Notes: generated by a model not told the origin, from the sequence alone. DNA of 64,000 bases from Candidatus Fermentithermobacillaceae bacterium (GCA_012840345.1 DULO01000031.1:26421-90420), one strand, 5' to 3'. Shown: positions 2,479 to 20,376, counted from the stretch's first letter. Made by a program: numbers and translations.

Positions 2479-2519
2479 GGAAGGCGACGGGAGGCGGGTT
2501 CCCCCTCCTATCGCCTTCC
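2479..2519. terminator. Long imperfect hairpin between convergent genes (putative bidirectional terminator)
   Basis: GGAAGGCGACGGGAGG-cgggttccc-CCTCCTATCGCCTTCC, a 16-bp stem with 2 mismatches. It lies between the pspC-domain gene (+) and the barrel-protein gene (-), with a T-rich stretch downstream on the plus strand. Confidence 0.4.
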
Positions 2520-2524: not shown

Positions 2525-3937
2525 TTATGCTTGCTCCCGGAATACCTCGAGGTTGGCCTCGGGGATGACCACGGTCTCCCCTGAGCCATCCAGCCGTACC
2601 ACGGCCACTTCCATCGGGCTTTCAGATTCCATGACCTTAAGTTCGGACGGAAGCTCTTCCACCGTCCCCCAAAGTCCGAAATAGGGCTCGCGGACACAGC
2701 GGACCTTGTCTCCCACTGTGAGGGAGACCGTCTCGTGCAAAGACACCTCAAAGGGCTCACCGAAGACGGGTTCTTGAGGAACGTCATCTCGCGGCGGCCC
2801 GCCTTCGCTAAACAGGATTTGGGGACGTATGGCCCCGGCGCGTATGTGGGTCGTTCCGTCCAGGGAAGCGACACGTCCGGCGTGAGAAGCCAGGAGCTCC
2901 CAAGCTCTCGGGCTCATAGGCAGCTCTCCAAACCCCTCTGTCACCACCACCGTGAGTCCGGGCTGTTCTTGCCCTGTCAACCCCACGTTTATCTCGTAAC
3001 CCAGGAACTGCACCAGGTCCAGGTTGTTGATCCCACCGACGACAAGGCCGGCGGCCCCGACGTCTCTCGCCTTGCGGAGCGCCTCCAGGCTCACCGAGCT
3101 TCCCGCCAAAAGGACGCTGCCCTTGTGGTTCTTGTCGATCCCGGCATCGCCGAGCGGTTCTGAGGGTCCGCCGCAAACCATGACAAGTTCCCCGTGCTTC
3201 TCGCCCCCTATGCCGAACACGCCCTCTAGGTACGCGCCCTGGGACTCCACGACGGCGCCGTAGTCAGGCAGGATCTCGGTCACTACCCCGGCGATATGGG
3301 CCAGAACCCTGGAAGGCTTGATCGGCCTAACAACCGTGATTGTGCCGGTCTTGGTGCATATCTTCTCGACCACGCCGCCCATGGGCGTGTAGACGTAGTC
3401 CACTCCCGCCTCGCCGATGAGGGGATTTACGACTGCCGAAGCCAACGCCTGCCCTTCGTACACCGTGTCGCCTTCCTTGACGTTGGTGTACATCCGGATC
3501 ATGGACGGCCATACCTTGAGTTTCTCCGCCACGTTCATTACGACAACCGGCTTGGACGACCTCGGGTCCTCCCTGATGACGACCCTGCCTTGGATCCTCG
3601 ATATCATCTCCACGATCCCGTCGCACGGGGCCTTGACATCAAAGATTTCCGACCAGAACCTCTTCTGGTGCCTGGCGATGGCCTGACCTTTGGTTACTTT
3701 GTCGCCAACTTTGACCAGCAGGACTTCATCCACCAGTTGAGGGGTGAGCCGCATGCGAAGTTCCGAGTTGAGGTCGATCACCCTGGGACTGCCCCGCACA
3801 AACTCGGTCTTGGCGATAACCGTCTCCGGGGTAACCAAGTCTCCCGGCTTAACCAGCACGTCCCCCGGCATGTTCAGCCTGCGCGCCTTTCTGAGCCTGG
3901 CGCGCGGCACTATTTTCGTGTTACAGGCGACGGCCAT
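2525..3937 (-). CDS. Hypothetical cytosolic protein with biotinyl/lipoyl-like hybrid-barrel motifs (paralog A); partner of GlmL-like ASKHA protein
   Basis: 470 aa. It carries VKVGDKVTKGQAIA...VKAPCDGIV and VKEGDTVYEGQALA hybrid-motif repeats but no biotinyl-lysine AMKM motif. It is clearly paralogous to the 11248..12405 product (shared APCDG-V, VVTEGFG/VVTEGYG and C-terminal KVG/LGDRV...GTV..EL blocks). No transmembrane segment. Confidence 0.6.
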   Translation of the reverse strand: MAVACNTKIVPRARLRKARRLNMPGDVLVKPGDLVTPETVIAKTEFVRGSPRVIDLNSELRMRLTPQLVDEVLLVKVGDKVTKGQAIARHQKRFWSEIFDVKAPCDGIVEMISRIQGRVVIREDPRSSKPVVVMNVAEKLKVWPSMIRMYTNVKEGDTVYEGQALASAVVNPLIGEAGVDYVYTPMGGVVEKICTKTGTITVVRPIKPSRVLAHIAGVVTEILPDYGAVVESQGAYLEGVFGIGGEKHGELVMVCGGPSEPLGDAGIDKNHKGSVLLAGSSVSLEALRKARDVGAAGLVVGGINNLDLVQFLGYEINVGLTGQEQPGLTVVVTEGFGELPMSPRAWELLASHAGRVASLDGTTHIRAGAIRPQILFSEGGPPRDDVPQEPVFGEPFEVSLHETVSLTVGDKVRCVREPYFGLWGTVEELPSELKVMESESPMEVAVVRLDGSGETVVIPEANLEVFREQA

Positions 3938-3953
3938 GTCACAAAACCTCCTC

Positions 3954-5750
3954 TCACGAAAGGCTGTCCGCGAACATGCTTTCAGGGTAGGCGTCCATCG
4001 CCTTGGCCCACCTCTTTAAGGCCATAACTCTCCTGCGGTTATCCTCTGGCAAGGATAACGGCCTCCCTCTCCCGTCGAGGATAAGGCCTACGATTCCTCC
4101 GGAAACGTTCGCCGTAACCGGTCTGCCCGGCCCGTTTCCGACATCGAAACCTCTCTTCGGGACGACCGTAACCGGAGCGGTGGTCTTGGGAGGAAGCGGT
4201 ATGACGCGAATCTCACCCGCCTCTATCGCGTAGGACGATTCCTCCATCTCAACCCTGGCGATGGACGAACCGGGCTGGGATGAATGGCCTGAAGGGGCGA
4301 TAACCGTTCCAAGCTCCACCAGCGCTTCAGCGGACATGAGCTCGTTAACGGTCTCAGGTTCGGAATCCATGAGGACGCCCAAATGCGGGAGGAGAAACTG
4401 GCTGTCCACCGCCAGTTCCGTGATGCCTAATGGTTGTAGGGCGTCCATCATCATTAGTGCCGCTTGTGCCCGTCTAGGAGCGTAACTCAACACGCCGCCC
4501 GAACCGATGATGAGCCCGGTCTTCATGAGGTCCACGAGGGTCGCTCCCGTGCCCAGCTGGTTGAAGACGTCCCCTACTTCTCTTTTCTGCTGGATGCCCT
4601 TTAGGTCTCTTATCAGGGAACAGTGGTGGTCCAAAGAAAGGCGCAAAGCTTCTCTGGCCACGGCCTGCTCAAATACCAGGTCTCTCATGGTCTGAGGCAA
4701 AGTGGTGGGCCTGATCATCTTGTTAAAACCCCAGTTGCGTACCGAGTTTTCGTCAGTCTCCCACGGAATCCACCTCAAGACCGACTCCACTTTTGCCTCC
4801 GCCAAGACGTTAGCCAAGCTGTAGGACATTCCCAAGTTGGCCGAGACTGTCCTGAAGAACTGGCCGGATATCACCGAAAATACGTCGGTGGTAGCCCCGC
4901 CAACGTCTACCCCCAAGACGTCGAGGCCGCGGGCCTTTGCCAGGCGGGTCAAGACATCTCCCACCGCGACCGGCGTCGGCTTGATCTTGCCGCCGGTCCA
5001 GGAAGCCAGGGTCTTGTACCCCGGAGCGCGCATCATGACGTGCTCCAGAAACAACCGGTGAATCTCTTCCCTTGCCGGCCCCAGCACCTCCGTCTCCAAG
5101 CTTGGGCGTATGTTGTCTGTCACGCTAAGGTCCAGCGCGTCGCCTATGGCCTCCTCAACGTATCCCCTGGCGTCGAGGTTTCCGGCGTAGATGACGGGGA
5201 TCTTGAAGTCCTTTCCGAACCTGGCTTCGGGGTTGGCCATTGCGATGTATTCAGCCATGGCGGCGACGTCAGAGATGTTGCCTCCGTCGGTACCGCCGGT
5301 CACCAGAATCATGTCCGGACGCACTTTCCGGATGATGTCTATCCGCTCCATGAGCACCCTGTTGTCGTCCAGAGACAGGATATCGGACACAATGGCTCCC
5401 GCCCCCAAGGCCGCCCTGTGGGCGGATTCGGCGGTCATGGTTTTAACCAGCCCGGTAACCAGCATCTGGAGCCCGCCGCCCGCGGAAGATGTCGCCACAA
5501 AAACATCGGTGCCGTCTTCATGGTGGGAAGGAAGGATCAGCCTGGACCCGTCCAAAAGTCTCCTGCCGGTCCTCCTCTCAAGCTTTGCCAAGGCGTTCCT
5601 AAGGCCTATCATGACGTCCAGGTCCGGAGCCTCGACGGTGGTGGGCGCGACGGCCTTCCCAAGGACGCGCCAGCCTTCTTTCCCTCTCTCAAAGAGAACC
5701 GCCTTGGTCGTAGTGCTGCCGACGTCCGCCGCGATGATCCGGTTCCTCAT
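3954..5750 (-). CDS. GlmL/MutL-family (EutA-like) ASKHA-fold protein, paralog A
   Basis: 598 aa. The N-terminal IIAADVGSTTTKAVLF and internal LGVDVGGATTDVFSV phosphate-binding motifs are characteristic of the glutamate-mutase-L / EutA reactivase-like family. It lies 17 nt upstream of barrel protein A on the same strand. Confidence 0.65.
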   Translation of the reverse strand: MRNRIIAADVGSTTTKAVLFERGKEGWRVLGKAVAPTTVEAPDLDVMIGLRNALAKLERRTGRRLLDGSRLILPSHHEDGTDVFVATSSAGGGLQMLVTGLVKTMTAESAHRAALGAGAIVSDILSLDDNRVLMERIDIIRKVRPDMILVTGGTDGGNISDVAAMAEYIAMANPEARFGKDFKIPVIYAGNLDARGYVEEAIGDALDLSVTDNIRPSLETEVLGPAREEIHRLFLEHVMMRAPGYKTLASWTGGKIKPTPVAVGDVLTRLAKARGLDVLGVDVGGATTDVFSVISGQFFRTVSANLGMSYSLANVLAEAKVESVLRWIPWETDENSVRNWGFNKMIRPTTLPQTMRDLVFEQAVAREALRLSLDHHCSLIRDLKGIQQKREVGDVFNQLGTGATLVDLMKTGLIIGSGGVLSYAPRRAQAALMMMDALQPLGITELAVDSQFLLPHLGVLMDSEPETVNELMSAEALVELGTVIAPSGHSSQPGSSIARVEMEESSYAIEAGEIRVIPLPPKTTAPVTVVPKRGFDVGNGPGRPVTANVSGGIVGLILDGRGRPLSLPEDNRRRVMALKRWAKAMDAYPESMFADSLS

Positions 5751-5767
5751 CTCTCACACCTCCGTCG

Positions 5768-6916
5768 CTAAAAACCTCCACAAAGTCCGCATTGAGCGCA
5801 GGATGGGTTGGAAAACGCGTATATGGCCTTGTTGTTCAAGAGTTGGTCGCAGGTCGCGTTTCTCGTGAGTCTCAAGGGAAGGAGCGCGCCTCCGGCCAAC
5901 GCCAGCGCTCCCATAACCGCCGACGCGGGAAAAGCCGCGGCCGGAACCGGCGCGGAAAGCCCGAGCTTGCACAGGGCAAACCCAATGACGAGCCCAACCG
6001 GGATCCCCGCGTACCCCAGGTACCAGCATTCAGCCAGGACGAGCCTCCTCAAGTCCGGCCGTGTGGCGCCAATCACTTTTAAGATACCCAACGCGCGTTT
6101 TCGTCCCAGGAAGGATACGGCTAGCACGCACGACACCGCGGACGCCGCCGTAAGGGCTACCATGACCGACACCGCCTGCCAGGGCAGATATGCTCTTAGC
6201 GCTGCCTTTCTGACGATGTGCCGGGTAAAACCATCCATGAACACCTTGGCTCCGGGATAGCTTCTGGACAGTTTGATGACCCGGGACAGGACGACGCTCG
6301 GGTCTCCCGTAACGTCAAAGGCGATCCCCGAAAGGTTTTCATGGCCTAGCGAGTCCGTCGATACCCATGCCCACCCCTCCGGATACTCACCTTCCGGCAG
6401 GTATTCACCGGTAGACCGGACCGTCCAGGTGCCTAACAAGCTCCCAGTGTCCGCGTCCCACACCTCAAGGCTTGAGCCCTCGCCGGCTTCTTTGGCCAAC
6501 GCCGGGCCGCACAGGAGGGTCCCCCTTTCCACCGAATCCAGGGCTCCGAGTACGAACAACGGCCCCAGCCGGGTGTCGGCGTTTACCCAAGGAAACCTCC
6601 TCAAGTTCGCGATGCCTTCGAAGCCCTCGGCTTCTTCCAGGGCCGAGACCGCTTCCTCGGCTGAGTCAAATATGATAATGGCTCCGGCAGGCAAGGACGG
6701 GGTAGCGACCTCTCTAGCCGCCGCGTCGCCGTTTTGAGAGACCATACAGACTACGGCCATGGAAGCCGCCACAGTAAGCGCCACTGACAAAGCCACAACA
6801 GCCGCCGCGCCGATCTCCCGCCTCAAGCGCCTCTTAGACATCAGCCTGGCCATCGACCAAGACAGCGCGGGCCGCAACCTCTCAGCCTGGGGGAGAAGCG
6901 CTCTACTTTTTGGCAT
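5768..6916 (-). CDS. ABC transporter permease, FtsX/MacB-like (4TM + extracytoplasmic domain)
   Basis: 382 aa with an N-terminal TM, a ~220-aa extracytoplasmic domain and C-terminal LKVIGATRPDLRRLVLAECWYLGYAG...TM helices, typical of FtsX-type permeases. Its start overlaps the ATPase gene stop. Confidence 0.7.
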   Translation of the reverse strand: MPKSRALLPQAERLRPALSWSMARLMSKRRLRREIGAAAVVALSVALTVAASMAVVCMVSQNGDAAAREVATPSLPAGAIIIFDSAEEAVSALEEAEGFEGIANLRRFPWVNADTRLGPLFVLGALDSVERGTLLCGPALAKEAGEGSSLEVWDADTGSLLGTWTVRSTGEYLPEGEYPEGWAWVSTDSLGHENLSGIAFDVTGDPSVVLSRVIKLSRSYPGAKVFMDGFTRHIVRKAALRAYLPWQAVSVMVALTAASAVSCVLAVSFLGRKRALGILKVIGATRPDLRRLVLAECWYLGYAGIPVGLVIGFALCKLGLSAPVPAAAFPASAVMGALALAGGALLPLRLTRNATCDQLLNNKAIYAFSNPSCAQCGLCGGF

Positions 6917-7610
6917 TCAGGACCTTCCTCTCGACGATCTCGCCGTCGGACAGGCGGATAAGCGTATCCGCGTAGTCCAAAAAACCGTCCTCGTGGGTAA
7001 CCACCACAAAGGTCTGTCCTTCCTCTTGGTTGAAGCGCTTAAACAGCTTCATTATCTCCTGGGACATCTTTGAATCCAGGTTTCCGGTAGGTTCGTCGGC
7101 CAGCACGATGGAAGGCCTGGGAGCCAGCGCCCGGGCTATGGCGACTCTCTGCTGCTCACCGCCGCTAAGCTCCACCGGGTAATGGTTCGCCCGGGCCGTC
7201 AACCCGGTAACCTCAAGAAGATGCATGACCCGGGACATGATGTCCCGCTCGTCCATCCGGGCTAGCCTCATGGGCATTCCGATGTTCTCGGCCGCGGTAA
7301 GTTCGGGCAAGAGGTTGAAGAACTGGAACACGATCCCCAACTCGCGGCGCCTCATCACCGCCAGGTCGTCCTCGCTCATTCTGGAGTACTTTCGGCCGTT
7401 TAGGAGGACCTCCCCGTGGGTGGGCCGGTCTATTCCGCCGAGTATGTTCAAGAGAGTGCTCTTGCCTGACCCGGACGGACCCATGATGACGACGAACTGT
7501 CCCCTCTCCACCTCAAGCTCTACGTTGGACAAGGCGAACAAGCCGTCGCCTACTGCATAGAACTTCGAGAGTTCGTGGCACGCGAGGATGGGTCCATGCC
7601 ATTCATTCAC
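6903..7610 (-). CDS. ABC transporter ATP-binding protein (MacB/LolD-type)
   Basis: 235 aa with Walker A GPSGSGKST, the LSGGEQQRVAIARAL signature and Walker B IVLADEPTGNLD. Confidence 0.85.
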   Translation of the reverse strand: MNEWHGPILACHELSKFYAVGDGLFALSNVELEVERGQFVVIMGPSGSGKSTLLNILGGIDRPTHGEVLLNGRKYSRMSEDDLAVMRRRELGIVFQFFNLLPELTAAENIGMPMRLARMDERDIMSRVMHLLEVTGLTARANHYPVELSGGEQQRVAIARALAPRPSIVLADEPTGNLDSKMSQEIMKLFKRFNQEEGQTFVVVTHEDGFLDYADTLIRLSDGEIVERKVLNAKK

Positions 7611-9069
7611 GCTTCAACACCTCCGCGCTGGGAACCCGCGCCGCCCACAGACCTACCGCCGTACCCAGGGCCAACGATATTCCCAAAGACATGCCGAAGA
7701 CCGAGATGAAGTCTATGAACGTAAGTTTGATCCACTCGGCGGCCGTAATCTCTGAGGCCAAGAGCGACCACAACGAAAGGACTTTTGCCGCTAAGAACCC
7801 TATGGCTGCTCCCGCGGCCGCGACGTATCCGACAATAGTCAGCACGTAGACCACGACATCTTTGCCTGTGGCGCCAATAACCCGTAAGAGGCCTATCTTT
7901 CTCTTCTGCTGGACCAGCATGATGTAGGAACTCCCGGCCACGATAACGCCGGAAAGCATAAAACCCTGAACCTGAAGAAGCCCGCCGGCGTCGAGCCCTT
8001 GGAACCTAAGAGCTGACCCCGATACCTGGAGTTTCTTGAGTTCAGGCACGGGGCAGACCTGAAAACCTTCTCCCAACTTCTCTTGAATCCCGGACGCTAT
8101 CGCCTTTGCCTCGGACATGCGGTCAACCGATATCAGGAGCTCATAGGTAGGCAGTTGGTTCAAATCCACAGCCGCCTGGGTTTGAGCCAGGATCTCCTGA
8201 AACGTCTCTTTGGTAACGAAAACCTCCGGCCTATCCCAAAAGCGCGCCTCTTCGCCGGGTGCCGGGAACTCGGGCAAAGCGGTGGCATCAGGTTCCAGTA
8301 CCTGGTTGGTGTTCACCCGGTACTTGCCGGATACTTCAAGCACAACCGAAGCCCCGTTGTCCCAATCCAGCCCGAGCCCGAAAGCACCCCCAACAAGTCG
8401 CGCGGGGTCTTTGGAAGAAGGCGCGGGGTTCACGACCAACCGCGGCACTCGAACCGGAACAGACGAGCCTACGAGGTTGTACTCAAGTCCTCCGAAGTTA
8501 GGGAAGAGAGCCTCCATTCCGGAGCCGGCCGCAGGCCCAGGATACTCGCCTTCCACGATGAAGCGGGCCATAGAAAGGGGAAAGCTCTCAGCATCCAAAG
8601 CGTCTCTCGCTCTTAGAATGGCCTGGACCGAACCCACCAAGCACGGCAAGGATACATAAGGTTCGACACGGGTTACGCCGGGGACGTCTTTGATCAGGTC
8701 CATTACTTCGCGTGGGTCAAAGGCGCGCCAACCTAAAGACCCTTCCGATATATAGCCTTCTTGAGAAAGCCGGTGAAAGTAGTAGAGCGCGTGGGACTGC
8801 CAATCCCGTCCCTCCCACGGTTTCACAGTGAGGTTTGCGCCGTTTCGGGACTCTACCCGGCTTGACAGTGGCAAGACGACCAGGTCGCCTCCGATAAACG
8901 CCCTTTCCGCCTGGCCAACGCCCCACGGATAACCCCGGGGGATCATGTGGGACACAACAAGCATCCACGCGGCAAGAGCGGTCGCGGCCAAAGCGACGCC
9001 GGTCCTGGTCCAGTTTCGCTTTATCTCGTTTCTGCCGAGGCGGATTAGGTCCAAAGCCCCACCCTCCAA
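7603..9069 (-). CDS. ABC transporter permease, FtsX/MacB-like with large extracytoplasmic domain
   Basis: 488 aa. TTG start. N-terminal TM, a ~300-aa extracytoplasmic domain and C-terminal LLRVIGATGKDVVVYVLTIVGYV...FtsX-type helices. Confidence 0.7.
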   Translation of the reverse strand: MEGGALDLIRLGRNEIKRNWTRTGVALAATALAAWMLVVSHMIPRGYPWGVGQAERAFIGGDLVVLPLSSRVESRNGANLTVKPWEGRDWQSHALYYFHRLSQEGYISEGSLGWRAFDPREVMDLIKDVPGVTRVEPYVSLPCLVGSVQAILRARDALDAESFPLSMARFIVEGEYPGPAAGSGMEALFPNFGGLEYNLVGSSVPVRVPRLVVNPAPSSKDPARLVGGAFGLGLDWDNGASVVLEVSGKYRVNTNQVLEPDATALPEFPAPGEEARFWDRPEVFVTKETFQEILAQTQAAVDLNQLPTYELLISVDRMSEAKAIASGIQEKLGEGFQVCPVPELKKLQVSGSALRFQGLDAGGLLQVQGFMLSGVIVAGSSYIMLVQQKRKIGLLRVIGATGKDVVVYVLTIVGYVAAAGAAIGFLAAKVLSLWSLLASEITAAEWIKLTFIDFISVFGMSLGISLALGTAVGLWAARVPSAEVLKRE

Positions 9070-9236
9070 TCACACCAATTCCGTATTCTTGGAGGATCTC
9101 CTTCTCGACAATTGCTGACATTGACATTCTACGAGTTTACAAGGGAAAAGGTGCCCACAGAGACTTGCTCGCAGCAATGCGCGGGGTGTCTTGAGGCACA
9201 ATGCCTCGGCTCCGTTTACGCCAGCAATCTTGCGAG

Positions 9237-9265
9237 GTAATACTGTACTGCTACGTAAACGTCAA
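9237..9265 (-). promoter_or_regulatory. Putative sigma-A-type promoter for the FtsX-ATPase-FtsX-GlmL-barrel operon
   Basis: Minus strand: TTGACG (9265..9260), a 17-nt spacer, then TATTAC (9242..9237). A GAGGCA-caat-TGCCTC hairpin sits in the predicted leader (9193..9209). The element lies between the XRE-TPR gene stop and the permease start. Confidence 0.3.
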
Positions 9266-9279
9266 GCGTTGGTGACAGG

Positions 9280-11247
9280 CTATGTTATCTTGGAGCGGGC
9301 CCACCGGCCCCTCTCGAGCATCACGCCGGCAAGGTCGTCTCCTTGGGAGTACAGGTGCTCTCCATAGGCCTCACAAGCGAGGCCCTCCAGGAAGGGATCG
9401 GAAAACAAACGGGAATCCCTGATAGCTTCCGCGAAATGGCGGTTGGCGGCGACAACGCTTCCGAAACGAGCCTCGGCCTCCCCCAAAGCCACGGAGGACA
9501 CTACTCTGCCTTCTTCATCGCCCAGGGCGTGAAGCGACGTCCACGCCGCGCGCGCCCTTTCCAGAAGGTCCTCTCCATTCTCTTGAAGCCTTAGCGCGCA
9601 CCTTACGGCCCACGCCTCGGCCAAGCACTCTCGCTCTCTATCGCTAAGTCCCCGGGAAAACGCCTTCACAAGCTCCAGTTGCCGCAGGGCTTCGGCGTAC
9701 GCTCCTTCACGGAACCTGACCTTGGCGATTTGCAGCCTCGTCCACGCCTCGGTGGAAGTGTCCCTACCTTCCGAAAGAGCCAGAGCCCTGTTCAGCGAAG
9801 TGACGCTCCTGCCAAGTTCGCCTTTTCGGTAAAAGGCGCGCCCGAGCCCCAATAGAGCGTGAGCCATTAGCGACTGATCTCTTAGTTTTGTAGCTTCGCT
9901 TAGGGCTTCCTCGAACTCCGCCTGGGCGTTTGTGAGCTGCCCTTTCTTAAGGAGTAAGTACGCGAGATCTATACGGGCCCGGGCGGTAAGGCCCGTGTCT
10001 CCCTCTGAAGCTCTAAGGGCTTTCTCCAGGGCTTCTTGGGCTTTTTCAGGCATTCCGAGCCTGGAGTAGAGGCCGCCGGCCACCGACAACCCCATGACAA
10101 GGTCCCTTCGCTTGGAGGTCCTTTCCCAATACGACAGGTTTCGTTCCTGGTATACCAGAGCCTCCTCTAAGTCTCCCAAGTTCGAGCATACGGTGACCAT
10201 CATTTGATACGCTACGGACCTTTGGTCGGGATCTGTCCTTAGGACGGCGTCCAGCGAAAGGACTACCTTCAACCTTTCTTTGGCTACTCTCCACCATCCG
10301 AGGCTCAAAGACTTCTCCGCCGACGCTCTGTACCAGGTCCTCGCCTTGGACAAGTCCTGGGCATCCAAATACAGCTGGGCCAAGATATCCGGGTCCGTAT
10401 CGGGGTACTTCTCCTCAAGGTACCGGGCCAGCGAACAAAGAGCCTCACGACGCGGTTCCAGCGGCACCCACGTCTTTAGGACTGAAGCCGGCACCCTTTC
10501 CGAGAGGCGGACGACCCCGTCCCCCGAAGACGTGGGGACGAGGGAAGCTATCCCTGCCGTGGACAGAGATTCCAACGCCCTAAGCACGCACTGGACGGGC
10601 AAGGCCGTGGCCGCCTCAAGGTACTCCAAAGGCACCTCCCGAAATATGCCTGCCAAACTGCCGAGAACCGCTCCCACGCGCCTTTCGGGAACTCCCAATT
10701 GGTGCTCGGGAATAAGAGCGCGGCCCTCCTGTTCCATCGTCTCGCCTTTAGCGGCCGCCTTGGACGCTTGCCACCGCGCGATAGTGTTCCGCAAGACGCT
10801 GCCCAGGCGGCGTACCTCGGCGTCAGTGAGGGTGTTGACCTCACGGTAAAAAGCGGCGACTAGATAGGGGTCGGTAAGATTCAGGGAGTTCAGGAAGTCT
10901 TCAAATGCCCCTGTATCCCGGACGTCCACGGGCTCTTGAAGCCCGTGCGTCTCCCGCGACCCGACATGCCCCGCCTCTTGGGGCTCAGGAGCGGTCGTGA
11001 CGTCTGAAACCTCCTCGTCCAAAGGCATGTAGAGGCTGGACACCGACACGTCAAGCGCCAAAGCCAGAGCGTCCTTGTGATGATCGCTCAGGTTTTCCCT
11101 CTCGCCCGAAAGGATCAATGAAAAATACGAGGGACTCAGGCCGGCCATCTCGGCCAGCTCCTTTACTTTCAATCCCCGTTCTTTCATGAGCCTCTTTATG
11201 TTGTTGCGGAAAAGCTCGCTTGACTTCATCGGCATCGCCGGCATCAC
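9280..11247 (-). CDS. XRE-family HTH + TPR-repeat transcriptional regulator
   Basis: 655 aa. The N-terminal LKVKELAEMAGLSPSYFSLILSGER is an HTH_XRE motif, and the C-terminal half holds multiple Ala/Leu-rich TPR-like repeats. The true start may be the internal MKSSELF at ~11229. Confidence 0.7.
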   Translation of the reverse strand: MMPAMPMKSSELFRNNIKRLMKERGLKVKELAEMAGLSPSYFSLILSGERENLSDHHKDALALALDVSVSSLYMPLDEEVSDVTTAPEPQEAGHVGSRETHGLQEPVDVRDTGAFEDFLNSLNLTDPYLVAAFYREVNTLTDAEVRRLGSVLRNTIARWQASKAAAKGETMEQEGRALIPEHQLGVPERRVGAVLGSLAGIFREVPLEYLEAATALPVQCVLRALESLSTAGIASLVPTSSGDGVVRLSERVPASVLKTWVPLEPRREALCSLARYLEEKYPDTDPDILAQLYLDAQDLSKARTWYRASAEKSLSLGWWRVAKERLKVVLSLDAVLRTDPDQRSVAYQMMVTVCSNLGDLEEALVYQERNLSYWERTSKRRDLVMGLSVAGGLYSRLGMPEKAQEALEKALRASEGDTGLTARARIDLAYLLLKKGQLTNAQAEFEEALSEATKLRDQSLMAHALLGLGRAFYRKGELGRSVTSLNRALALSEGRDTSTEAWTRLQIAKVRFREGAYAEALRQLELVKAFSRGLSDRERECLAEAWAVRCALRLQENGEDLLERARAAWTSLHALGDEEGRVVSSVALGEAEARFGSVVAANRHFAEAIRDSRLFSDPFLEGLACEAYGEHLYSQGDDLAGVMLERGRWARSKIT

Positions 11248-12405
11248 CTAACCCCGGTCTCTCAGAAGGATATTTGATACGGGAACCAAGAGCGTCTCAC
11301 CGGTTTCCGTCGCCACCTTAGCCCCCGGTAACAGGAGGTCGTTTTCGAGCTTCAACTCAGGCAGGATCTCCACCACCGTGCCTTCTTTCACGGCGGTTGT
11401 GAGGCCTAGGACGCTGACCCTGTCCCCAAGTCCGAGCTCTCCCAGGCGGCATACGGGTTTTTCGGCCTCCTTGGCGACGGCTCCGCCGTTCAGCGGGATG
11501 ACGACCGCGGGCTCATCCGACCCGTTTCCGCCTCCGTCTATGTAGACCGGGTTGCCCTCGCTCTCGGCCAAAAGGGCGAACGCTTCGCCGCCCATGGGCG
11601 AGTCTCCATAGCCCTCGGTTACCACCAATGCCGGTACAATCTCGCTGGGAGAAGGCTCCAAATCCCGGTTCTTGGCGTCCCTTGCCCAATATCTGGCCAG
11701 GAACTCGTCCCAGTCCAAAGACCCTGCAAGGTCCGAGTACCACTCAAATAACCCGCGGCTCACGCTGCCCGCGATGATGCCGGAAACCCTGAACCTTAGG
11801 CAAGCTTCTAGGACTTCTTTGGACACGGAACGGCCGGCAACTATCACTTTCCCCGCGTCGTCCGCCGTGAAGTCCCTGGCGCTTAACTTGTCCGACGGAG
11901 TCTTCGCCTTCATGGAAAGCACCCCCGCCCGACCGTAGCCGGCACCAACAGAAGCCTTAACCAGGTTGCCGTACGTTCTGACCCACACTCCCCTGGCTTC
12001 GTCGGTTTTCTCGACGATTCCGGGAAGGCGGCAATACAAGCTCACCGGCGCTTCCTTGATGGCAATCGAGCCTATGGAAGGAATGAGGGCTACCACTTCC
12101 CCATCACAAGGCGCTGTGTACTCGGTGTATCCCAGCCCAAAGAAGTATGAGTAGTACGCCAGCACCTCGCCGCGCTTTACCTTTTGGCCTTCTTGGACCA
12201 GAACCGTCGCCGAAAAACCTTCTCCCGACGATTCCACCCTGACTTGCCTGAGCCTTCTCCGAGAAGCGTACGTGCCTGCTAGTGTATCCCACGTGACCTC
12301 CGACCCGACGTCTACTTGGGGCTCGCCGATGGAACCAAAGGCCCTTAAGCGCACAATTGGGGTATTGCGGGCAACTCGGGGTTCGTTGAGGGCGTAAAGC
12401 GTCAT
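11248..12405 (-). CDS. Hypothetical cytosolic hybrid-barrel protein (paralog B of 2525..3937)
   Basis: 385 aa with VKRGEVLAYY...YTAPCDGEVVALI, ALVVTEGYGDSPMGGEAFALLAE and C-terminal LGDRVSVLGL...GTVVEILPEL. These blocks are colinear with paralog A. Its start overlaps the stop of the upstream GlmL-like gene (ATGA), and its stop abuts the XRE-TPR start. Confidence 0.6.
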   Translation of the reverse strand: MTLYALNEPRVARNTPIVRLRAFGSIGEPQVDVGSEVTWDTLAGTYASRRRLRQVRVESSGEGFSATVLVQEGQKVKRGEVLAYYSYFFGLGYTEYTAPCDGEVVALIPSIGSIAIKEAPVSLYCRLPGIVEKTDEARGVWVRTYGNLVKASVGAGYGRAGVLSMKAKTPSDKLSARDFTADDAGKVIVAGRSVSKEVLEACLRFRVSGIIAGSVSRGLFEWYSDLAGSLDWDEFLARYWARDAKNRDLEPSPSEIVPALVVTEGYGDSPMGGEAFALLAESEGNPVYIDGGGNGSDEPAVVIPLNGGAVAKEAEKPVCRLGELGLGDRVSVLGLTTAVKEGTVVEILPELKLENDLLLPGAKVATETGETLLVPVSNILLRDRG

Positions 12406-14132
12406 TGACCTCTCCCCCTCTCCCAGCCTGATAGAACTTGCTCGGGGAAGACGCCAAGGTTCCTGTACCAGCCTATGATTTCACGGGGAGAGATTCTCTC
12501 CAGGGTTCTAAGCTGCGGCCTGGGGCGTCCGTCCACATAAATCCGGGAAAAGCCGGGCGGAAGATCCCGCACGGTCTTTCGTCCGGGTCCCTCGCCCAAG
12601 TCTTCTTGGCGTGAAGGGTCCAACGTGATTTCCACGGCGGAACCATTTGCGATGGGAACTAACGTTATCTCGCCCATACTCACGGGCAGCTGCTCGTACG
12701 TCCCGTCCAATCTCGCCGAGGCCCATCCCGCGCCGACGCGGTCTCTGTCTTCGCCGGGGGCGACCAGGACGGCCAGAGGCAAGAGACTCTCCAGTATGTT
12801 TGCGCTTCCGGAAGGAAGCAGGCCGGCTACCTGCAGCGCGTTGCAAGTATCAAGGTAGACGCCCACGCCTCCCGCGACCTGCGCGCCGTCCATAACCAAA
12901 GACAGGACCGCTTCCCGGGAAAGGACCCGGGACAGGACGCCGGTCACGACTATCCGCCTCAAGGTAGGCATCTTCAAGAGCGTATCCCCGCCCGAGACTT
13001 CCACTTGGAAAGTCTCCCCTACCTGTCTTTGCCGGTGCACGCCGCGAAGTTCTATGGCGGTGGCCTTATGCTCGGCGATACCTTCCCTTATGGCTTCTTT
13101 CCAAACCGCGAGAAAGACCGATAACTCGTTCCAAGTGGTGGGCAAAACGTGCGGCCGGAGTACCAGGTTGCCTATGAAATCGCCCAGGTTTTCCGCCATT
13201 TGAGGGTGAGGAAGCCATTTGGCCACTTTGTTGGGGTTTACCTTGGCGACCGGGGTCACGGTTCTGGTGAACACTCCCTTGATGCCGGAGAAGACCTGCA
13301 CCGCGTCGCCGTCCAGGGACAGGCCCAAGACGTTCTCGCCCGTTTCCTCGTAGAGCCCCTCGAAAGCAAGGCCCGCCGCGTACCCCGACGGGAAGACTTC
13401 CGGCAAACCCAGCTTGCCTAGACCTTGGAACTTAGGGTCAGAGCGCACGTTTTCCGAAAACGAGCCTACGACCGCGTCGCGCGCTGAAGCTAAGTGCTCT
13501 TCCTCGAGCTTTGCCCTAACGTTGTCGGCCCAGATTATCTCGATATCCCCCAGGATCCTGGCCACTTCCTCCCGGGCTTCTTGAGAACCCGCGTAGACCA
13601 GGGGAATCCTGTCATCGCTCCATCCTTTCTTGGGCAACCCTTTGGCTAGGACTCTGGCGATGTTGAGGATCTGATGGGTTCCGGACTCCATAATTTCCTC
13701 GTCTACCCCGCCGGCCATGACGGCGACGGACACATCCTGGCGGCGCAAGTCCGAAATCCTCTCGAAATCCTGGCGGCCGTCATCGACGCAAACCAGATCG
13801 GTCACAGTGGCGCCGGCCAACAAAGCGGCTCTCTTGGCGGATTCCCCCGAGATGCCCTTGACTACTCCCGCGCATACCGCCTTGGGTTCCCCGCCTGCGC
13901 TAAGGGTCACCATGACGCCTTCATTCTCGTAAGAGGACTTGTCCTCTGACATTCGGGATCCGATGACGTCCAGTACCTCGCCCAACCCCAAAGTTCGTTC
14001 ATCTTTGCTCGCCGGCGGCGGAGTGGGACAGGAAACGCGCTCTAGCTGGACAATCCTGCCGCCCTCGATAGCCAGGGCGCGGGCTTCGGTAACCGTACTG
14101 CCTACGTCTATATGAAAGATACTCTTGGTCAT
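12402..14132 (-). CDS. GlmL/MutL-family (EutA-like) ASKHA-fold protein, paralog B
   Basis: The start is ATG MTKSIFHIDVGSTVTEARALA at 14132. This was chosen over the listed longer ORF because the ATG sits 1 nt after the upstream ATPase stop. ~576 aa, same family motifs as paralog A. Confidence 0.65.
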   Translation of the reverse strand: MTKSIFHIDVGSTVTEARALAIEGGRIVQLERVSCPTPPPASKDERTLGLGEVLDVIGSRMSEDKSSYENEGVMVTLSAGGEPKAVCAGVVKGISGESAKRAALLAGATVTDLVCVDDGRQDFERISDLRRQDVSVAVMAGGVDEEIMESGTHQILNIARVLAKGLPKKGWSDDRIPLVYAGSQEAREEVARILGDIEIIWADNVRAKLEEEHLASARDAVVGSFSENVRSDPKFQGLGKLGLPEVFPSGYAAGLAFEGLYEETGENVLGLSLDGDAVQVFSGIKGVFTRTVTPVAKVNPNKVAKWLPHPQMAENLGDFIGNLVLRPHVLPTTWNELSVFLAVWKEAIREGIAEHKATAIELRGVHRQRQVGETFQVEVSGGDTLLKMPTLRRIVVTGVLSRVLSREAVLSLVMDGAQVAGGVGVYLDTCNALQVAGLLPSGSANILESLLPLAVLVAPGEDRDRVGAGWASARLDGTYEQLPVSMGEITLVPIANGSAVEITLDPSRQEDLGEGPGRKTVRDLPPGFSRIYVDGRPRPQLRTLERISPREIIGWYRNLGVFPEQVLSGWERGRGQ

Positions 14133-14133
14133 C

Positions 14134-14838
14134 TCAGCCCTCCCGTGCCATTCCTCCGTCGTATACGCGGGTGATGCGCCCGTCGAGCATCTCCACAACC
14201 CGGTGCGCCCACCTGGTGATCGAAGGATCATGTGAAACCACGACAAAGGTCTGGCCTCTTTCTACATTGAGTCTGTGGAAGATCTCGCCGATCTCCGACG
14301 AAGTCTTGGAGTCCAGATTCCCGGTTGGCTCGTCGGCCAGCACTATCGCGGGTTGGTTGGCCAAGGCCCTGGCGATAGCCACTCGCTGCTGCTCCCCTCC
14401 GGATAGCTCTAAAGGCTTGTGATCTTGCCTTTGGCCTAGGCCTACTTGAACCAAGAGCTCTCTCGCCCGTTCAGTCATGGCCTTCTTGCTCATTCCGCCA
14501 AACCTCATGGGCAACATCACGTTCTCGAGCGCTGTGAAGTGGGCTATGAGGTTAAAGAACTGGAACACGAACCCGACCTTGTTCCGCCTGATCCGGGCCA
14601 GACCGCTTTCGGAAAGCTGGGAGTATCTCTGGCCGTCCAGGATGACATCCCCGCTCTGGGGCCTGTCTAACCCTCCCAAGAGCCCAAGGAGCGTGCTCTT
14701 GCCGCTGCCCGAGGGGCCCATCAAAACGATGAATTCGCCGCGGTCCACTACCAGGTTCACGTCGTTGACCGCGTAGATTGTCTGTCCCAAGTGAAAGGAT
14801 TTCTTGAGGTTCACTGTCCTCAGGATAGGCTCATCCAA
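14134..14838 (-). CDS. ABC transporter ATP-binding protein (MacB/LolD-type), second copy
   Basis: 234 aa with GPSGSGKST, LSGGEQQRVAIARAL and IVLADEPTGNLD. It is a paralog of 6903..7610. Confidence 0.85.
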   Translation of the reverse strand: MDEPILRTVNLKKSFHLGQTIYAVNDVNLVVDRGEFIVLMGPSGSGKSTLLGLLGGLDRPQSGDVILDGQRYSQLSESGLARIRRNKVGFVFQFFNLIAHFTALENVMLPMRFGGMSKKAMTERARELLVQVGLGQRQDHKPLELSGGEQQRVAIARALANQPAIVLADEPTGNLDSKTSSEIGEIFHRLNVERGQTFVVVSHDPSITRWAHRVVEMLDGRITRVYDGGMAREG

Positions 14839-14998: not shown

Positions 14999-16204
14999 TT
15001 ATCCTTGGACTTTCTTTCTCAGGTACTCCTTGGCTTCGGCCAACAACTCGGGCTCCAGCAGGAGGTCCACGGCGCACAATGACAAGACCGAAGCGGCGTC
15101 CACGGTGGCGTCGATACCCTGGTCCGTGACGGTAGCGTCGGCCATGTCGGTCGAGTGGCCCCTGGCGTCGCCGATCCTGAAGCCGATTTGAATGGACGGA
15201 GTAACCCACGTTACGTTGCCGACATCGGTAACTCCGCCTCCGCCTCCGGTCTCCTGATTAAGCTCGTGCCCTATGTACTCAAAGTTCTTGCGGGCCAGTT
15301 CTTTCAGCACAGGGTGTTCCAGAGTGTCCCGGAATAGGTTTTCGTGATGCCGGAACTCCACGGTGGTTCCATTGGCCAACGCGGCGCCCTCCGCGCATCT
15401 CTTCACCCTGGGAATGATCACGTCCTCGAGGTAGCGCCAATCGGTGCAGCGCAAGGTGAACCTCATGACCGCCTTATCGGGGATGATGTTCTGAGCGTCT
15501 CCGCCGTGGGTGATGATGCCCGCGATCCTTACATCGTCTCTCAGGCTATGCCGGAGGTTGCGGATGGCGATGTAAGCTTGAACGCAGGCGTCTAGGGCGT
15601 TTATGCCGCCTTGAGGGTTGCCGCCCGCGTGGGCCGAGCGCCCGTGAAACGTGATCTCTATGGGGTGGGAAGCCCACGCCACGCCGCCGCCCACCGAGTC
15701 ACGCTGGCCGGGATGGGCGATAAACGCGGCGTCTATATCGTCAAAGACTCCCTGCTCGGACATGATTACTTTGCCTCCGACAGTCTCCTCGGCCGGCGTG
15801 CCCAACACTATCCATGACGGGCCGCCATCAGAAAGGCTTCCGGCAGGAATGACGGAACTGCAGGCGATGCCGGCCGCGACCGCGCAGGCCGCCATCAAGT
15901 TGTGACCGCACCCGTGTCCTATGGCCGGGAGCGCGTCGTACTCCGCCATGAACGCTATGGCAGGTTTGCCTGTTCCCTTGCGCGCGAAGAATGAGGTGGG
16001 TAGCCCCGCCAATCCCCGTTCCACCTGAAAGCCGTTCTCTTCAAGGATCCCGACAAGTTTGTCAGCCGCGAAGTACTCGTTGAGCCCCGTCTCAGGATGC
16101 TCGTAGAGGGACACCGCGATGTCAGAAACAAGAGGCCTAAGTACTTTTGCCGTCTCGACAATCTGCTTCCGAATCCGGTCTCTGTCACACGCTTCTTTTT
16201 TCAA
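14999..16204 (-). CDS. M20-family amidohydrolase / peptidase (aminoacylase-hippuricase-like)
   Basis: 401 aa with AIGHGCGHN metal-binding motif and the ArgE/DapE/ACY1/CPG2/YscS-type M20 dimerisation-domain layout. Confidence 0.75.
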   Translation of the reverse strand: MKKEACDRDRIRKQIVETAKVLRPLVSDIAVSLYEHPETGLNEYFAADKLVGILEENGFQVERGLAGLPTSFFARKGTGKPAIAFMAEYDALPAIGHGCGHNLMAACAVAAGIACSSVIPAGSLSDGGPSWIVLGTPAEETVGGKVIMSEQGVFDDIDAAFIAHPGQRDSVGGGVAWASHPIEITFHGRSAHAGGNPQGGINALDACVQAYIAIRNLRHSLRDDVRIAGIITHGGDAQNIIPDKAVMRFTLRCTDWRYLEDVIIPRVKRCAEGAALANGTTVEFRHHENLFRDTLEHPVLKELARKNFEYIGHELNQETGGGGGVTDVGNVTWVTPSIQIGFRIGDARGHSTDMADATVTDQGIDATVDAASVLSLCAVDLLLEPELLAEAKEYLRKKVQG

Positions 16205-16250
16205 TTATTTACCTCCTCCGGTCTCCGGGTCGAATGTCGGTCCCTAGGGC

Positions 16251-17597
16251 TTACACTCCCAAAAAAGTGGCCGCCAGGAGCCAAATCGCTTCTCCCCGGG
16301 TGACGCCGGTATCGCCGGCTTCTCGGGAACGCTTTAGAACCAAGGCTTTTCTTCTCGCGCATTCCTCCTCGTTTATGCTGAGATTGGAGATCACGTCCAA
16401 GCAAGCCTCCATGATGTCTTTCCTATCTACTCTCTTCGACTCACCGGAAAACCTTCCCGCCCGGCCCTTGGCAGCCATCCGCTGAGAGATGACTTGGAAC
16501 AGGCCGCGGTCGGAAGCGTCTTCGAGTTTCGAGTTTCTTTGGGCGGCGTACGGGACTCCGGCCGGAACGGACATCAGGTTTAGCTCACGGACCGTAATCG
16601 GCTTCGAGGGGCGGACCCGGTTGTCCGCGTAGGTCACTATGTATCCGGCGCGCAAGAGGGCTTCCGCCGCGGGATACAGGGGATCGTCAGGGGGCAAGTC
16701 GGTGAACTGGGACATTTTAAGAAGCTCGGAGACGGTAACGACCTCGTAGCCGTAGGCCTTCAACACCGCCAGCTGCCGCTTAAGCCCAAAAGGCGCGGGC
16801 GCTTCCGAGGACATGTTGTAACCGTCTTTGTGAAAGATTATGGAACCGTTAAGGCAGTCCGGATCGTTGGATAGAGCTTCTTCCAACGGTCGGACCATGT
16901 TTTCCACGTCTCTTTGGAAGTCGCCTGTGGAAGCCTGCCACCCGCCTCCGTCAAAGCTGGCTCCCAAGTACATGTAGCCCAGAGCACGGTACGCGTCGTA
17001 GGCGTCGTAGCCTCCCAAGATCCGGTCGATATAGTGGGGCGGCCTGCCCAGCTCCATTTTCACGCCGCAAAGGGACAAGACGAAGTCATCCAGCGCCCTA
17101 AGGTCCTCTACCACCGCGTCGAAACTTGGGAGAAACCCGCGGAACGCGTAAGGGTACTTGTTGGGGCCAAAGGCGGCGTGGCTGAACCCGTGGTTGGAAA
17201 GCTGGTGGCCCTCGGCGACTATGCGTTTCACGAGGTCAGGCTGGTTTACGGCGCCTCCAAGGTGGTCTTGCCCAAACTCAGGATAGTGGTCGTACCTTAC
17301 CCCATTCCAGTACGGGCCGCCGTTCTTCCCTTTCGTGTCCGGATACTTGAACTTGGTGGAGCCGATAATGTCAAAAGTGCCCTTAGCGCCAGCTTCCTTA
17401 AGCGTCTCAAGGATGGATAAAGTGAGAGGTTCGGGCCCCGGCCGGGCGGGGCCCGCGCAAGGCCCGTCGTCAAAGGTTATGGCCACTACCCTCCGCCCGG
17501 GCACGGGAGCCACCCGGTCTATCCTTCTCACCGGGCCGATTTTCTGCGACAGGCGGTAGTTCTTCAGTTTTCTGTATATTTCTCTAGGCCCTTGCAT
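16251..17597 (-). CDS. Polysaccharide deacetylase (NodB/CE4 domain) protein with C-terminal SLH-like segment
   Basis: 448 aa. AITFDDGP...TFDIIG is a NodB motif. A C-terminal FTDLPPDDPLYPAAEALLRAGYIVTYADNRVRPSKPITVRE resembles an S-layer-homology motif. Confidence 0.65.
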   Translation of the reverse strand: MQGPREIYRKLKNYRLSQKIGPVRRIDRVAPVPGRRVVAITFDDGPCAGPARPGPEPLTLSILETLKEAGAKGTFDIIGSTKFKYPDTKGKNGGPYWNGVRYDHYPEFGQDHLGGAVNQPDLVKRIVAEGHQLSNHGFSHAAFGPNKYPYAFRGFLPSFDAVVEDLRALDDFVLSLCGVKMELGRPPHYIDRILGGYDAYDAYRALGYMYLGASFDGGGWQASTGDFQRDVENMVRPLEEALSNDPDCLNGSIIFHKDGYNMSSEAPAPFGLKRQLAVLKAYGYEVVTVSELLKMSQFTDLPPDDPLYPAAEALLRAGYIVTYADNRVRPSKPITVRELNLMSVPAGVPYAAQRNSKLEDASDRGLFQVISQRMAAKGRAGRFSGESKRVDRKDIMEACLDVISNLSINEEECARRKALVLKRSREAGDTGVTRGEAIWLLAATFLGV

Positions 17598-18786
17598 GTC
17601 TTCTGAAAACTCCTCCCGTCAAGTGGATAAGTCCCGGCATTGGGTCCGAGAGGCTAAAGAGGCCGTCTCTTGGACGGTACTTGAGGAGGTCCCAAAGCCC
17701 CTTAGCGATGTAGCCGGCTCCGTTTCCGGGTAGACGCGAGTATTCGAACAGAGAGACGAAGTCGCCGGGGAAAAACCGCACCCTTACGCCGTCTTTCTGC
17801 CGCAAGGGAGCAATATCCTCCCCAAGGCAAGCGCGGTAATACAGAAGAGGAAAATCCACGCCTGCTTCAACAGCCAAAGCCAGGCTGCCCCAAAACCGCG
17901 GGTTCACCTCGAGAAAGCGGAACTTGCCGTCGAGGCCCCTCCTAAAGTCCAGCATGGCCATACCTCGCCAGTTGAGAGCCGAAAGCAAACGGTGGCTGTA
18001 GTCCACCAGCTCGGGGCAGTCCTCTGACACGCAATACACTGTGGGGCCAGCTCCCCTGGGCCTTTCACGTATGCTCCGGTAGGTAAACGAGGCAACCGGC
18101 CTTCCGTCCTTGTCGTAGAGGAGCGCGGCGCCGTAATCCTCGCCTGCCACGTATTCTTGGGCGATTGGAGCGGTTTGAACCGTTTCCATCTGACGGTACG
18201 CTTCCAATACTTCTTCCGGCGATGAGCACATTCGGTAACGTAAAGACGCGGGCAGCCCCGCGTCCTCGCCTGACCTGTATTTCAACATGACGGGGTAAGG
18301 AAGGTCTTGCGCCCACTTGAGCATGGCGGAGGCATCCCGGATGTCTACCCCGTTTTCCGCGGGCGAACTTGTTCGTGGGACCGGCACGCCCAGGCTTCGC
18401 GCCAGCTTTGTGCACCTCGCCTTGTCGTGGGCTTCTTCCAGGGCTGACGGTGTGGGGACCAGCGTTTTGGCCCGCCTCGCGATCTTAGGCTCGTCCCAAG
18501 ACATTTTAAACACGGCCGGGGTAAAGACGGGCACGAGCACTCCCCCTTCTCCCGCCGCCTCCAGCAGGGTTTCGACATCGGCGTCGGAGAGAGCGGTTTT
18601 GGCGCCGCGGCCGAGATTGACACTAGACTTGACATACTTGGAATGGAAGGCAAGCGGCCTGGGGGTGTCAGCCGCCTCGGCGGCGACAACATGTATCCCA
18701 GCCCGGCCCAGGGACCGGGCGATAGTAACCGCTATGCGAAGCCTCGCGTCGGTCACCACTGCCTTGGGTTTCTCGTAAACCGCCAT
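17584..18786 (-). CDS. ATP-grasp domain carboxylate-amine ligase
   Basis: 400 aa with an ATP-grasp core (PVMLKYRSGEDAG...EYVAG...MLDFR...FLEVNPRF). It overlaps the deacetylase start by 14 nt, as in an operon. Confidence 0.65.
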   Translation of the reverse strand: MAVYEKPKAVVTDARLRIAVTIARSLGRAGIHVVAAEAADTPRPLAFHSKYVKSSVNLGRGAKTALSDADVETLLEAAGEGGVLVPVFTPAVFKMSWDEPKIARRAKTLVPTPSALEEAHDKARCTKLARSLGVPVPRTSSPAENGVDIRDASAMLKWAQDLPYPVMLKYRSGEDAGLPASLRYRMCSSPEEVLEAYRQMETVQTAPIAQEYVAGEDYGAALLYDKDGRPVASFTYRSIRERPRGAGPTVYCVSEDCPELVDYSHRLLSALNWRGMAMLDFRRGLDGKFRFLEVNPRFWGSLALAVEAGVDFPLLYYRACLGEDIAPLRQKDGVRVRFFPGDFVSLFEYSRLPGNGAGYIAKGLWDLLKYRPRDGLFSLSDPMPGLIHLTGGVFRRHARA

Positions 18787-18900
18787 GCTCCACTCCCTTT
18801 AGTTGATTCTACCGATACCGGATGCCCCAGTCCACCAAAGCCAATTGGCACTACAATTGGGTCGTTGACACTCAATTATTCCGGTGTTAAACTCCATTAA

Positions 18901-20376
<1,476 letters not shown>

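Follow-up and report, generated by a model that had tools for sequence, protein, structure and literature searches.

Why should an ASKHA-type ATPase and a cytoplasmic barrel protein be encoded, twice over, among the genes of an ATP-binding cassette (ABC) transporter? The question is raised by a 64,000-nucleotide stretch of DNA from a Candidatus Fermentithermobacillaceae bacterium (GCA_012840345.1 DULO01000031.1:26421-90420), the whole of which is referred to here as the window. An inspection of the nucleotide sequence alone (the sequence-only reading) had pointed out two copies of a two-gene module there, and we call the members of each module ASK (the ASKHA protein) and BAR (the barrel protein). 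They belong to an array of nine minus-strand genes (2525-14838) that has almost no spacing between genes and is transcribed in the order ABC2, ASK2, BAR2, a gene for a helix-turn-helix/tetratricopeptide-repeat (HTH/TPR) protein, FtsX-B, ABC1, FtsX-A, ASK1 and BAR1. All four ASK and BAR open reading frames (ORFs) are present on the minus strand where they had been placed. We found that the two modules are diverged paralogues, from clades C and D, of one widespread and uncharacterised two-protein unit. The four genes are:

3954..5750, minus strand: ASK1, ASKHA ATPase family, 598 aa, clade C, nucleotide-binding motifs all intact
2525..3937, minus strand: BAR1, cytoplasmic partner, 470 aa, clade C
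12402..14132, minus strand: ASK2, divergent ASKHA protein, Pfam MutL/GlmL, probable pseudo-ATPase, 576 aa, clade D
11248..12405, minus strand: BAR2, single-barrel partner, 385 aa, clade D, hallmark motifs gone

Two diverged copies of one two-protein unit

Pairwise alignment of ASK1 with ASK2 gave 29% identity over the full length (E 2e-57), and BAR1 and BAR2 share 26% identity over 331 residues (E 6e-15) with a second colinear segment at E 3e-8. Thus, the two pairs, which have the same gene order, are mutual paralogues, as the sequence-only reading had it. Both ASK proteins match the Pfam family PF13941 (MutL/GlmL), ASK1 at 389.3 bits and ASK2 at 130.4 bits against a cut-off of 27. Their earlier assignment to the GlmL family therefore holds at the Pfam level, and hydantoinase A, the other identity that had been considered for them, gave only a 37-residue sub-match. 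With the NCBIfam models, ASK1 scored under the cut-offs of NF040745 (233 vs 475), TIGR01319 (173 vs 204) and the Or-4 model NF040744 (215 vs 600), and ASK2 fell under the same GlmL, GlmL-subfamily and Or-4 cut-offs with scores of 70, 58 and 56. ASK1 has relatives with 53-55% identity out to Brocadia and Thermodesulfobacteriota, and annotation pipelines label these proteins "glutamate mutase L" or "methylaspartate mutase". The start of ASK2 is the ATG at 14132; database records include an identical protein of 576 aa together with ~35 orthologues of 560-581 aa.

The phosphate-1 (DVGSTTTK), phosphate-2 (DVGGATTD) and adenosine (GSGG) motifs are all intact in ASK1, which, as far as sequence can tell, carries the motif set of an active ASKHA ATPase. 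ASK1 and ASK2 also share a conserved extra C-terminal beta domain of ~120 aa (ASK1 residues ~477-598) in which D536, G538, G540, G542, D559, R561, R563, and W581 are near-invariant. Fold comparisons against PDB structures identified FtsA and PilM as the closest solved folds to ASK. Family models and gene context did not place ASK among the FtsA or PilM proteins, and sequence searches of the PDB with ASK1 and BAR1 returned nothing meaningful.

BAR1 is comprised of two sandwich-barrel-hybrid units, a beta region, a swivelling-type alpha/beta domain, and a KOW/SH3-like domain at the C-terminus, and comparison with the PDB gave no structural analogue of the whole chain. One 80-residue barrel unit (BAR1 residues 95-174) is extra, being missing from BAR2 and from the ancestral 375-aa form. 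The Pfam matches of BAR are solely to barrel-sandwich-hybrid families (RnfC_N at 36.8 bits for BAR1, sub-threshold matches only for BAR2), and no catalytic domain could be recognised. Hydropathy analysis showed no hydrophobic segment in BAR1 or BAR2, the N-termini of both are charged, and neither has a signal peptide, lipobox or transmembrane (TM) anchor such as adaptor proteins have. By these predictions, BAR is a cytoplasmic protein. The sequence-only reading had reached the same view and had taken the barrel proteins to be neither ABC adaptors nor members of a named enzyme family; consistent with this, BAR did not match the membrane-fusion/adaptor family models (HlyD, MacA, YknX; TIGR01730) and lacks their set of alpha-hairpin, beta-barrel and membrane-proximal domains. 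The colinear motifs that had been quoted for the two barrel proteins proved to be real family motifs in the family alignment.

Other identities for these proteins were considered and dropped. No lysine is present among the invariant or near-invariant columns of the BAR family alignment (49 sequences), and because of this BAR is not a biotin or lipoate carrier: there is no conserved modifiable lysine (MKM/DKA), and the biotinyl/lipoyl family PF00364 scores 25 bits over the whole protein with no single stretch passing alone. A phosphorelay like that of the phosphotransferase system (an EIIA-like barrel with an EI-like swivel domain) was rejected, since the would-be phosphohistidine in TxH/QIRAG is Gln in most members. 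The PADLOC anti-phage models gave no match to ASK1, ASK2, BAR1, BAR2, or either FtsX protein and only generic HTH/TPR matches to the regulator.

The ASK-BAR unit across genomes

At least 929 relatives of BAR1 are found in a collection clustered at 90%, and none of the 120 best matches bears an informative name. A BAR profile run against 1.84 billion representatives recovered 1,209 clusters (50% identity) at E<=1e-30. A genome scan located more than 600 BAR loci, retrieved with the pattern GxTQIRAGxxRPE, in ~15 bacterial phyla and five archaeal metagenome-assembled genomes (MAGs). We fetched 80 of these loci and called their ORFs; the queries used to search them were the proteins of the window and the neighbours from a Nitrospira locus. 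The bacterial loci came from Bacillota, Chloroflexota, Armatimonadota, Planctomycetota, Nitrospirota, Elusimicrobiota, Eisenbacteria, Fermentibacteria, Cloacimonadota, WOR-3, Zixibacteria, Hydrothermota, Stahlbacteria, Myxococcota, and Eremiobacterota, and the archaeal ones from the five MAGs, which represent Methanomethylicia, Culexarchaeum, and other Thermoproteota.

Co-occurrence of ASK with its barrel partner had been proposed as a check, and it was found: in 65 of the 78 testable cases the gene immediately upstream of BAR is ASK. When neighbour-joining trees were built for the two proteins from the same loci, the ASK tree was congruent with the BAR tree, and four clades matched between them. 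The universal form is clade B, which has the order n123-ASK-BAR, a BAR of ~375 aa, and archaeal members; clade A is found in Bacillota, behind membrane genes, and has a BAR of ~445 aa. ASK1 and BAR1 of the window fall with their relatives in clade C, and ASK2 and BAR2 in the long-branched clade D. In one lineage the two proteins are fused. The protein P0317 (with cluster members P0429-P0438) is a natural 995-aa fusion; in P0317, residues 12-604 align with ASK1 (48% identity) and residues 678-994 match the BAR profile. Because eight distinct full-length variants of 995 aa occur on 18 contigs from three sources (ENA, Logan, NCBI), the fusion is genuine and not a sequencing artefact. From the adjacency, the co-evolution, and the fusion we infer that ASK and BAR work as a complex. 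The sequence-only reading had favoured an activase that is combined with varying clients; the congruent trees, the adjacency and the fusion instead reveal a fixed, co-evolving unit.

The usual company of this unit is a set of membrane proteins. A gene for a DUF6754 protein is in the flank of half of the loci (40/80), and the usual order is n123-ASK-BAR-DUF6754-n216-n280-n249, as at the Nitrospira locus (L001:5794-12751) and at ~40 others (for example L021, L041, and L047). This seven-gene order is met in Nitrospirota, Planctomycetota, Elusimicrobiota, Eisenbacteria, Fermentibacteria, Bacillota, and Thermoproteota. The first gene, n123, encodes a small cytoplasmic protein of ~120 aa. Hydropathy predicts at least two strongly hydrophobic segments in DUF6754, about five TM segments in n216, one at each end of n280, and about six in n249, and n280 has a near-invariant cytoplasmic D-R-R right before its first TM segment. 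Thus, DUF6754, n216, n280, and n249 are membrane proteins, whereas ASK and BAR have no TM segment. No Pfam or NCBIfam family matched n123, n216, n280 or n249, and profile searches of the PDB with the four membrane partners recovered an N-terminal Fn3 domain in DUF6754 and nothing for the others. The idea that n216 and n249 are a duplicated pair like NqrD/NqrE was dropped, as the two are not detectably homologous.

The second pair and the ABC/FtsX array

Pair 1 retains every conserved motif. In the alignment, DxGSTTTK, DIGGATTD, and GSGG are present in ASK1 and across the broad family, whereas in the ASK2 clade the phosphate-2 motif DIGGATTD has become SLDGDAVQ, the adenosine motif GSGG has become xTG, and an 11-residue deletion has taken out the SANLGMSYS loop. 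ASK2 retains the C-terminal domain. The clade is narrow, with 38 matches at 45% identity or more before a drop to 29%, and its named members are all Bacillota/Firmicutes MAGs. BAR2 and all of the five orthologues checked lack GxTQIRAGxxRPE, the REPYFG motif of the KOW domain, and the RRLPxPGEVLV motif at the N-terminus. That motifs were lost from both proteins of pair 2 suggests a functional coupling of these BAR motifs to the nucleotide site of ASK. The degeneracy, which the sequence-only reading missed, indicates that ASK2-BAR2 is probably a non-catalytic, pseudo-enzyme scaffold. The remaining features of the array are:

14134..14838, minus strand: ABC2, MacB/LolD/FtsE-type ABC ATPase (PF00005, 1.7e-34), no permease gene adjoining
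9280..11247, minus strand: XRE-type HTH + TPR protein (HTH_26, HTH_3, TPR_12 and TPR_MalT matches)
9070..9279, minus strand: intergenic gap of 210 bp, the sole sizeable gap of the array
7603..9069, minus strand: FtsX-B permease (PF02687, 28.9 bits vs cut-off 25.5)
6903..7610, minus strand: ABC1, MacB/LolD/FtsE-type ABC ATPase (PF00005, 4.6e-35)
5768..6916, minus strand: FtsX-A permease (PF02687, 32.0 bits vs cut-off 25.5)
2479..2519, no strand: GC-rich inverted repeat GGAAGGCGA...TCGCCTTCC, read from the sequence, directly after the BAR1 stop

ABC1 and ABC2 share 53% identity, and neither lacks any of the catalytic motifs (Walker A, Q-loop, LSGGEQQR, Walker B, and H-switch). The two nucleotide-binding domains (NBDs) score 242-251 bits with the LolD model TIGR02211 (250.9 for ABC2), which is at the family level and under the equivalog cut-off, and the best PDB relatives of ABC1 are MJ0796, LolD, YtrE, MacB, BceA, and FtsE. 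Hydropathy analysis of FtsX-B placed TM1 at residues 24-44 and TM2-4 at residues 404-475 with an extracytoplasmic domain of ~350 aa between TM1 and TM2; a PDB search with this protein gave no sequence relative. FtsX-A has four TM segments and an extracytoplasmic domain of ~180 aa by the same method, and its nearest solved chain is YtrF (E 2e-4). With an FtsX domain, a four-TM topology that includes an ectodomain, and a MacB/LolD/FtsE-type NBD, the genes that flank the ASK-BAR pairs have the features of a type VII ABC transporter.

The junctions are tight. ASK2 and BAR2 overlap by 4 bp, calculated from their coordinates, which bears out the overlapping stop and start codons reported for this pair. 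Between the ABC2 stop codon (14134-14136) and the ASK2 start at 14132 there is a single base, and the HTH/TPR gene begins at the very next base past the end of BAR2. The FtsX/ABC1/FtsX junctions overlap by 8 and 14 bp, and gaps of 17 bp and 16 bp separate FtsX from ASK1 and ASK1 from BAR1. Each module does lie, as had been described, directly downstream of an ABC ATPase or permease gene, with ABC2 before ASK2 and FtsX before ASK1. The HTH/TPR protein is likely a regulator. Directly after its stop codon there is a promoter-like TTGACG-17-TATTAC (minus strand, 9230-9262) with a leader of ~130 nt to the first FtsX gene; the consensus promoter scan did not list this element, and shuffled sequence gave at least as many matches in that scan. 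Transcription of a second unit may conceivably start in this gap. The inverted repeat at the other end of the array, between BAR1 and a PspC-like gene, is a perfect 9-bp repeat with an inner GGAGG/CCTCC pair; it has no T-tract behind it and was not listed by the terminator scan, and it probably marks the operon end. The small PspC-domain gene (2240-2440) is convergent with BAR1, and its position is kept in relatives (L088, L089). Upstream of the array (14999-20376) are genes for an M20 peptidase, a polysaccharide deacetylase with an SLH domain, an ATP-grasp protein, and a divergent IMP dehydrogenase, which are syntenic in L088.

The nine-gene order is kept in relatives down to ~47% identity (L005-L007, L009, L011, L088, and L090), and the closest named relatives are Candidatus Fermentithermobacillaceae. 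The HTH/TPR gene is at the same position in all of these loci and is absent from L089. An ABC ATPase gene precedes ASK2 in every orthologous locus with visible upstream sequence (L088, L089, and L090). L089 keeps ABC2-ASK2-BAR2 only, and the same MAG holds a canonical double pair of clades A and B (L025). ABC2 is thus the most persistent neighbour of the degenerate pair. This triad (L089:9272-12903) has no FtsX genes nearby, which hints that ABC2, intact and lacking a permease, may partner the degenerate pair directly. Another contig (L020) carries a fragment of an FtsX gene, a clade-C pair, the four membrane-protein genes, and clade-A and clade-B pairs; since both kinds are on one contig, the ABC-linked copies are tied to the general ASK-BAR system.

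The window contains a third PF13941 gene (44801-46144). The sequence-only reading had counted three GlmL paralogues, each with a different partner; the third gene is real, and the theme of different clients found no support, because this gene encodes a canonical Or-4 protein (NF040744, 632 bits vs cut-off 600) that adjoins an Orr-like racemase gene and, in alignment, lacks the ASK C-terminal domain. It is an ordinary Or-4 ornithine-degradation protein outside the ASK-BAR theme. This gene and the racemase gene, whose product scores under the Orr cut-off, occupy 43737-46144 between a CwlD-like amidase gene and an AmmeMemoRadiSam system. The context is unusual for Or-4 in that no ornithine aminomutase genes are present among the six genes scanned. 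The AmmeMemoRadiSam system (41278-43822) is comprised of a LigB/Memo-like domain fused to AMMECR1 (499 aa) and then its radical SAM enzyme, and a gene for a CobW-like GTPase is next (39917-41290).

Possible roles and known systems

Our tentative preference, to which we give a little less than an even chance, is that ASK and BAR act as an ATP-driven complex docked on a membrane machine, in the window on a type VII ABC transporter served by one active and one pseudo-enzyme pair. ASK and BAR would form a stable heterocomplex in the cytoplasm that binds a membrane machine from the cytoplasmic side, in this case the FtsX/ABC transporter, and the ATP cycle of ASK would control the assembly or activity of that machine, by analogy to FtsA-FtsEX and PilM-PilN. 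Since the TQIRAG/RP motif of BAR and the ASK nucleotide site have been lost jointly, the conserved arginines of this motif may act on that site. ASK2-BAR2 would be a non-catalytic scaffold or regulator tied to ABC2, a triad that persists where FtsX genes are absent.

Several observations weigh against docking on membrane machines. FtsX genes are present at only 3 of the 80 loci, so that the embedding in ABC/FtsX genes seen by the sequence-only reading is true in the window and is no general rule, the usual neighbours being DUF6754 and the three other membrane proteins. Only in one Bacillota lineage, which has built two extra ASK-BAR copies into the nine-gene array, is the unit linked to ABC/FtsX genes. 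Clade-C pairs elsewhere (L008, L012, L013, and L033) are surrounded by unrelated genes, and upstream of those without FtsX genes (L012, L013, and L033) there is no recurrent partner, with HisRS, an ArsR-type protein, a solute-binding protein, DprA, and an MFS transporter encoded there. About one-sixth of BAR genes, seen in WOR-3 and Armatimonadota, have no adjoining ASK, which means that BAR can function, or be encoded, apart from ASK. What links ASK-BAR to the FtsX/ABC or DUF6754 proteins is, throughout, gene order.

A more far-reaching proposal, which we regard as unlikely, is that ASK-BAR, DUF6754, and the three other membrane proteins form an unrecognised membrane machine of many bacterial phyla and Thermoproteota, with an actin-fold ATPase in place of a P-loop ATPase to drive or gate it. 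In that case the window would contain spare copies of its engine, one active and one a pseudo-enzyme, grafted onto a type VII ABC transporter.

Three alternatives are all weaker than docking of ASK-BAR on a membrane machine. In the best of them, improbable in our judgement, ASK is a GlmL-type factor that uses ATP to reactivate a radical or B12 enzyme, BAR is either the client or a swivel-domain subunit of ASK, and the ABC genes are mere neighbours. The reactivase of diol dehydratase does combine an ASKHA domain with a swivelling domain, and a resemblance of ASK to chaperones and reactivases had been suggested by the sequence-only reading. However, this resemblance did not survive: ASK fails the GlmL and Or-4 family cut-offs, its top structural neighbours are FtsA and PilM, its neighbours at the ASK-BAR loci are membrane proteins, and the Pfam-labelled neighbourhoods contain no gene for a mutase or B12 enzyme, although no GlmS/GlmE profile search was aimed over all loci.

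Peptide signalling or immunity is less probable again. Here, the HTH-TPR protein would be an RRNPP-like sensor, the FtsX/ABC proteins would export or sense a peptide or a cell-wall antibiotic as Bce/Ytr-like systems do, and ASK-BAR would make or modify the signal. The XRE-HTH and TPR architecture, the conservation of the regulator inside the array, and YtrF and BceB as the closest solved permease chains fit such a system. By contrast, no gene for a precursor peptide and no modification-enzyme domain was found, BAR has no recognisable catalytic domain, ASK-BAR overwhelmingly occurs without the regulator or an ABC system, and L089 keeps ABC2-ASK2-BAR2 without the regulator; on balance, the regulator is all that backs this alternative. 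That the barrel proteins are periplasmic adaptors (MacA/YknX/HlyD type) of a MacB-like exporter, in an ordinary tripartite-type efflux or bacteriocin system, is barely credible given the localisation and domain content of BAR.

Searches of the literature gave nothing relevant on the ASK-BAR unit, PF13941, DUF6754 or "glutamate mutase L", and the curated family libraries were likewise silent. A review places glutamate mutase among the non-polymerising actin-fold families as a mere listing (PMC5597319). On the basis of these negative searches, which cover the paper and family libraries consulted, the ASK-BAR unit and its gene neighbourhood appear, provisionally, to be new in kind, and duplication as such is not. 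If the proposed role holds, a unit that spans more than 1,000 clusters at 50% identity in bacteria and archaea is being auto-labelled "glutamate mutase L" or "methylaspartate mutase", a label that its gene neighbourhood argues against. If ASK-BAR does dock on membrane complexes, it would be a new actin-fold class with an obligate partner there, extending the roles of the actin superfamily beyond filaments, chaperones, and kinases, and would give a function to DUF6754 and three unnamed families of membrane proteins. The window is a natural experiment in which an active and a degenerate pair adjoin each other beside a tractable class of ABC/FtsX partner, and the correlated motif loss points to residues for mutation.

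Compared with known systems, ASK is closest in sequence to GlmL and Or-4 (PF13941, TIGR01319, NF040745, and NF040744), with which it shares the Pfam family and an ASKHA core with an inserted flavodoxin-like domain, and, in ASK1, the intact phosphate-1, phosphate-2, and adenosine motifs. It differs in that it lies under all curated cut-offs, has ~120 additional residues at the C-terminus where GlmL and Or-4 (~450 aa) end with the MutL domain, and is paired with BAR, never beside mutase genes in the neighbourhoods examined. In the window, the genes around ASK1 and ASK2 are ABC, FtsX, BAR, and HTH-TPR genes, and linkage to glutamate mutase (GlmS/GlmE) or ornithine-degradation genes is not seen. 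To our knowledge, the function of GlmL itself is unproven. BAR aligns with the N-terminal barrel of NqrA/RnfC, with biotinyl/lipoyl carriers, and with adaptor barrels over ~100 residues only, and unlike NqrA/RnfC and the carriers it lacks a cofactor-bearing lysine as well as NADH-binding and Fe-S domains; for the membrane partners of ASK-BAR, no similarity to Nqr/Rnf subunits or to a PDB chain could be detected. The ATPases and FtsX permeases of the window resemble those of type VII ABC systems (MacB, LolCDE, FtsEX, YtrEF, and BceAB) in their four-TM topology and extracytoplasmic domain, and as with LolC/LolE two different permease genes occur together. They differ from these systems in that there are two different ATPase genes, of which one stands apart from the permease genes and is joined to the degenerate pair, and in the strong divergence of the permeases (best PDB E 2e-4 or none). 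We know of no ASKHA-BAR pair in the MacB, LolCDE, FtsEX, YtrEF or BceAB systems. Docking of an actin-fold protein at the cytoplasmic side of a membrane machine is known from FtsA, with FtsEX and FtsN, and from PilM, with PilN.

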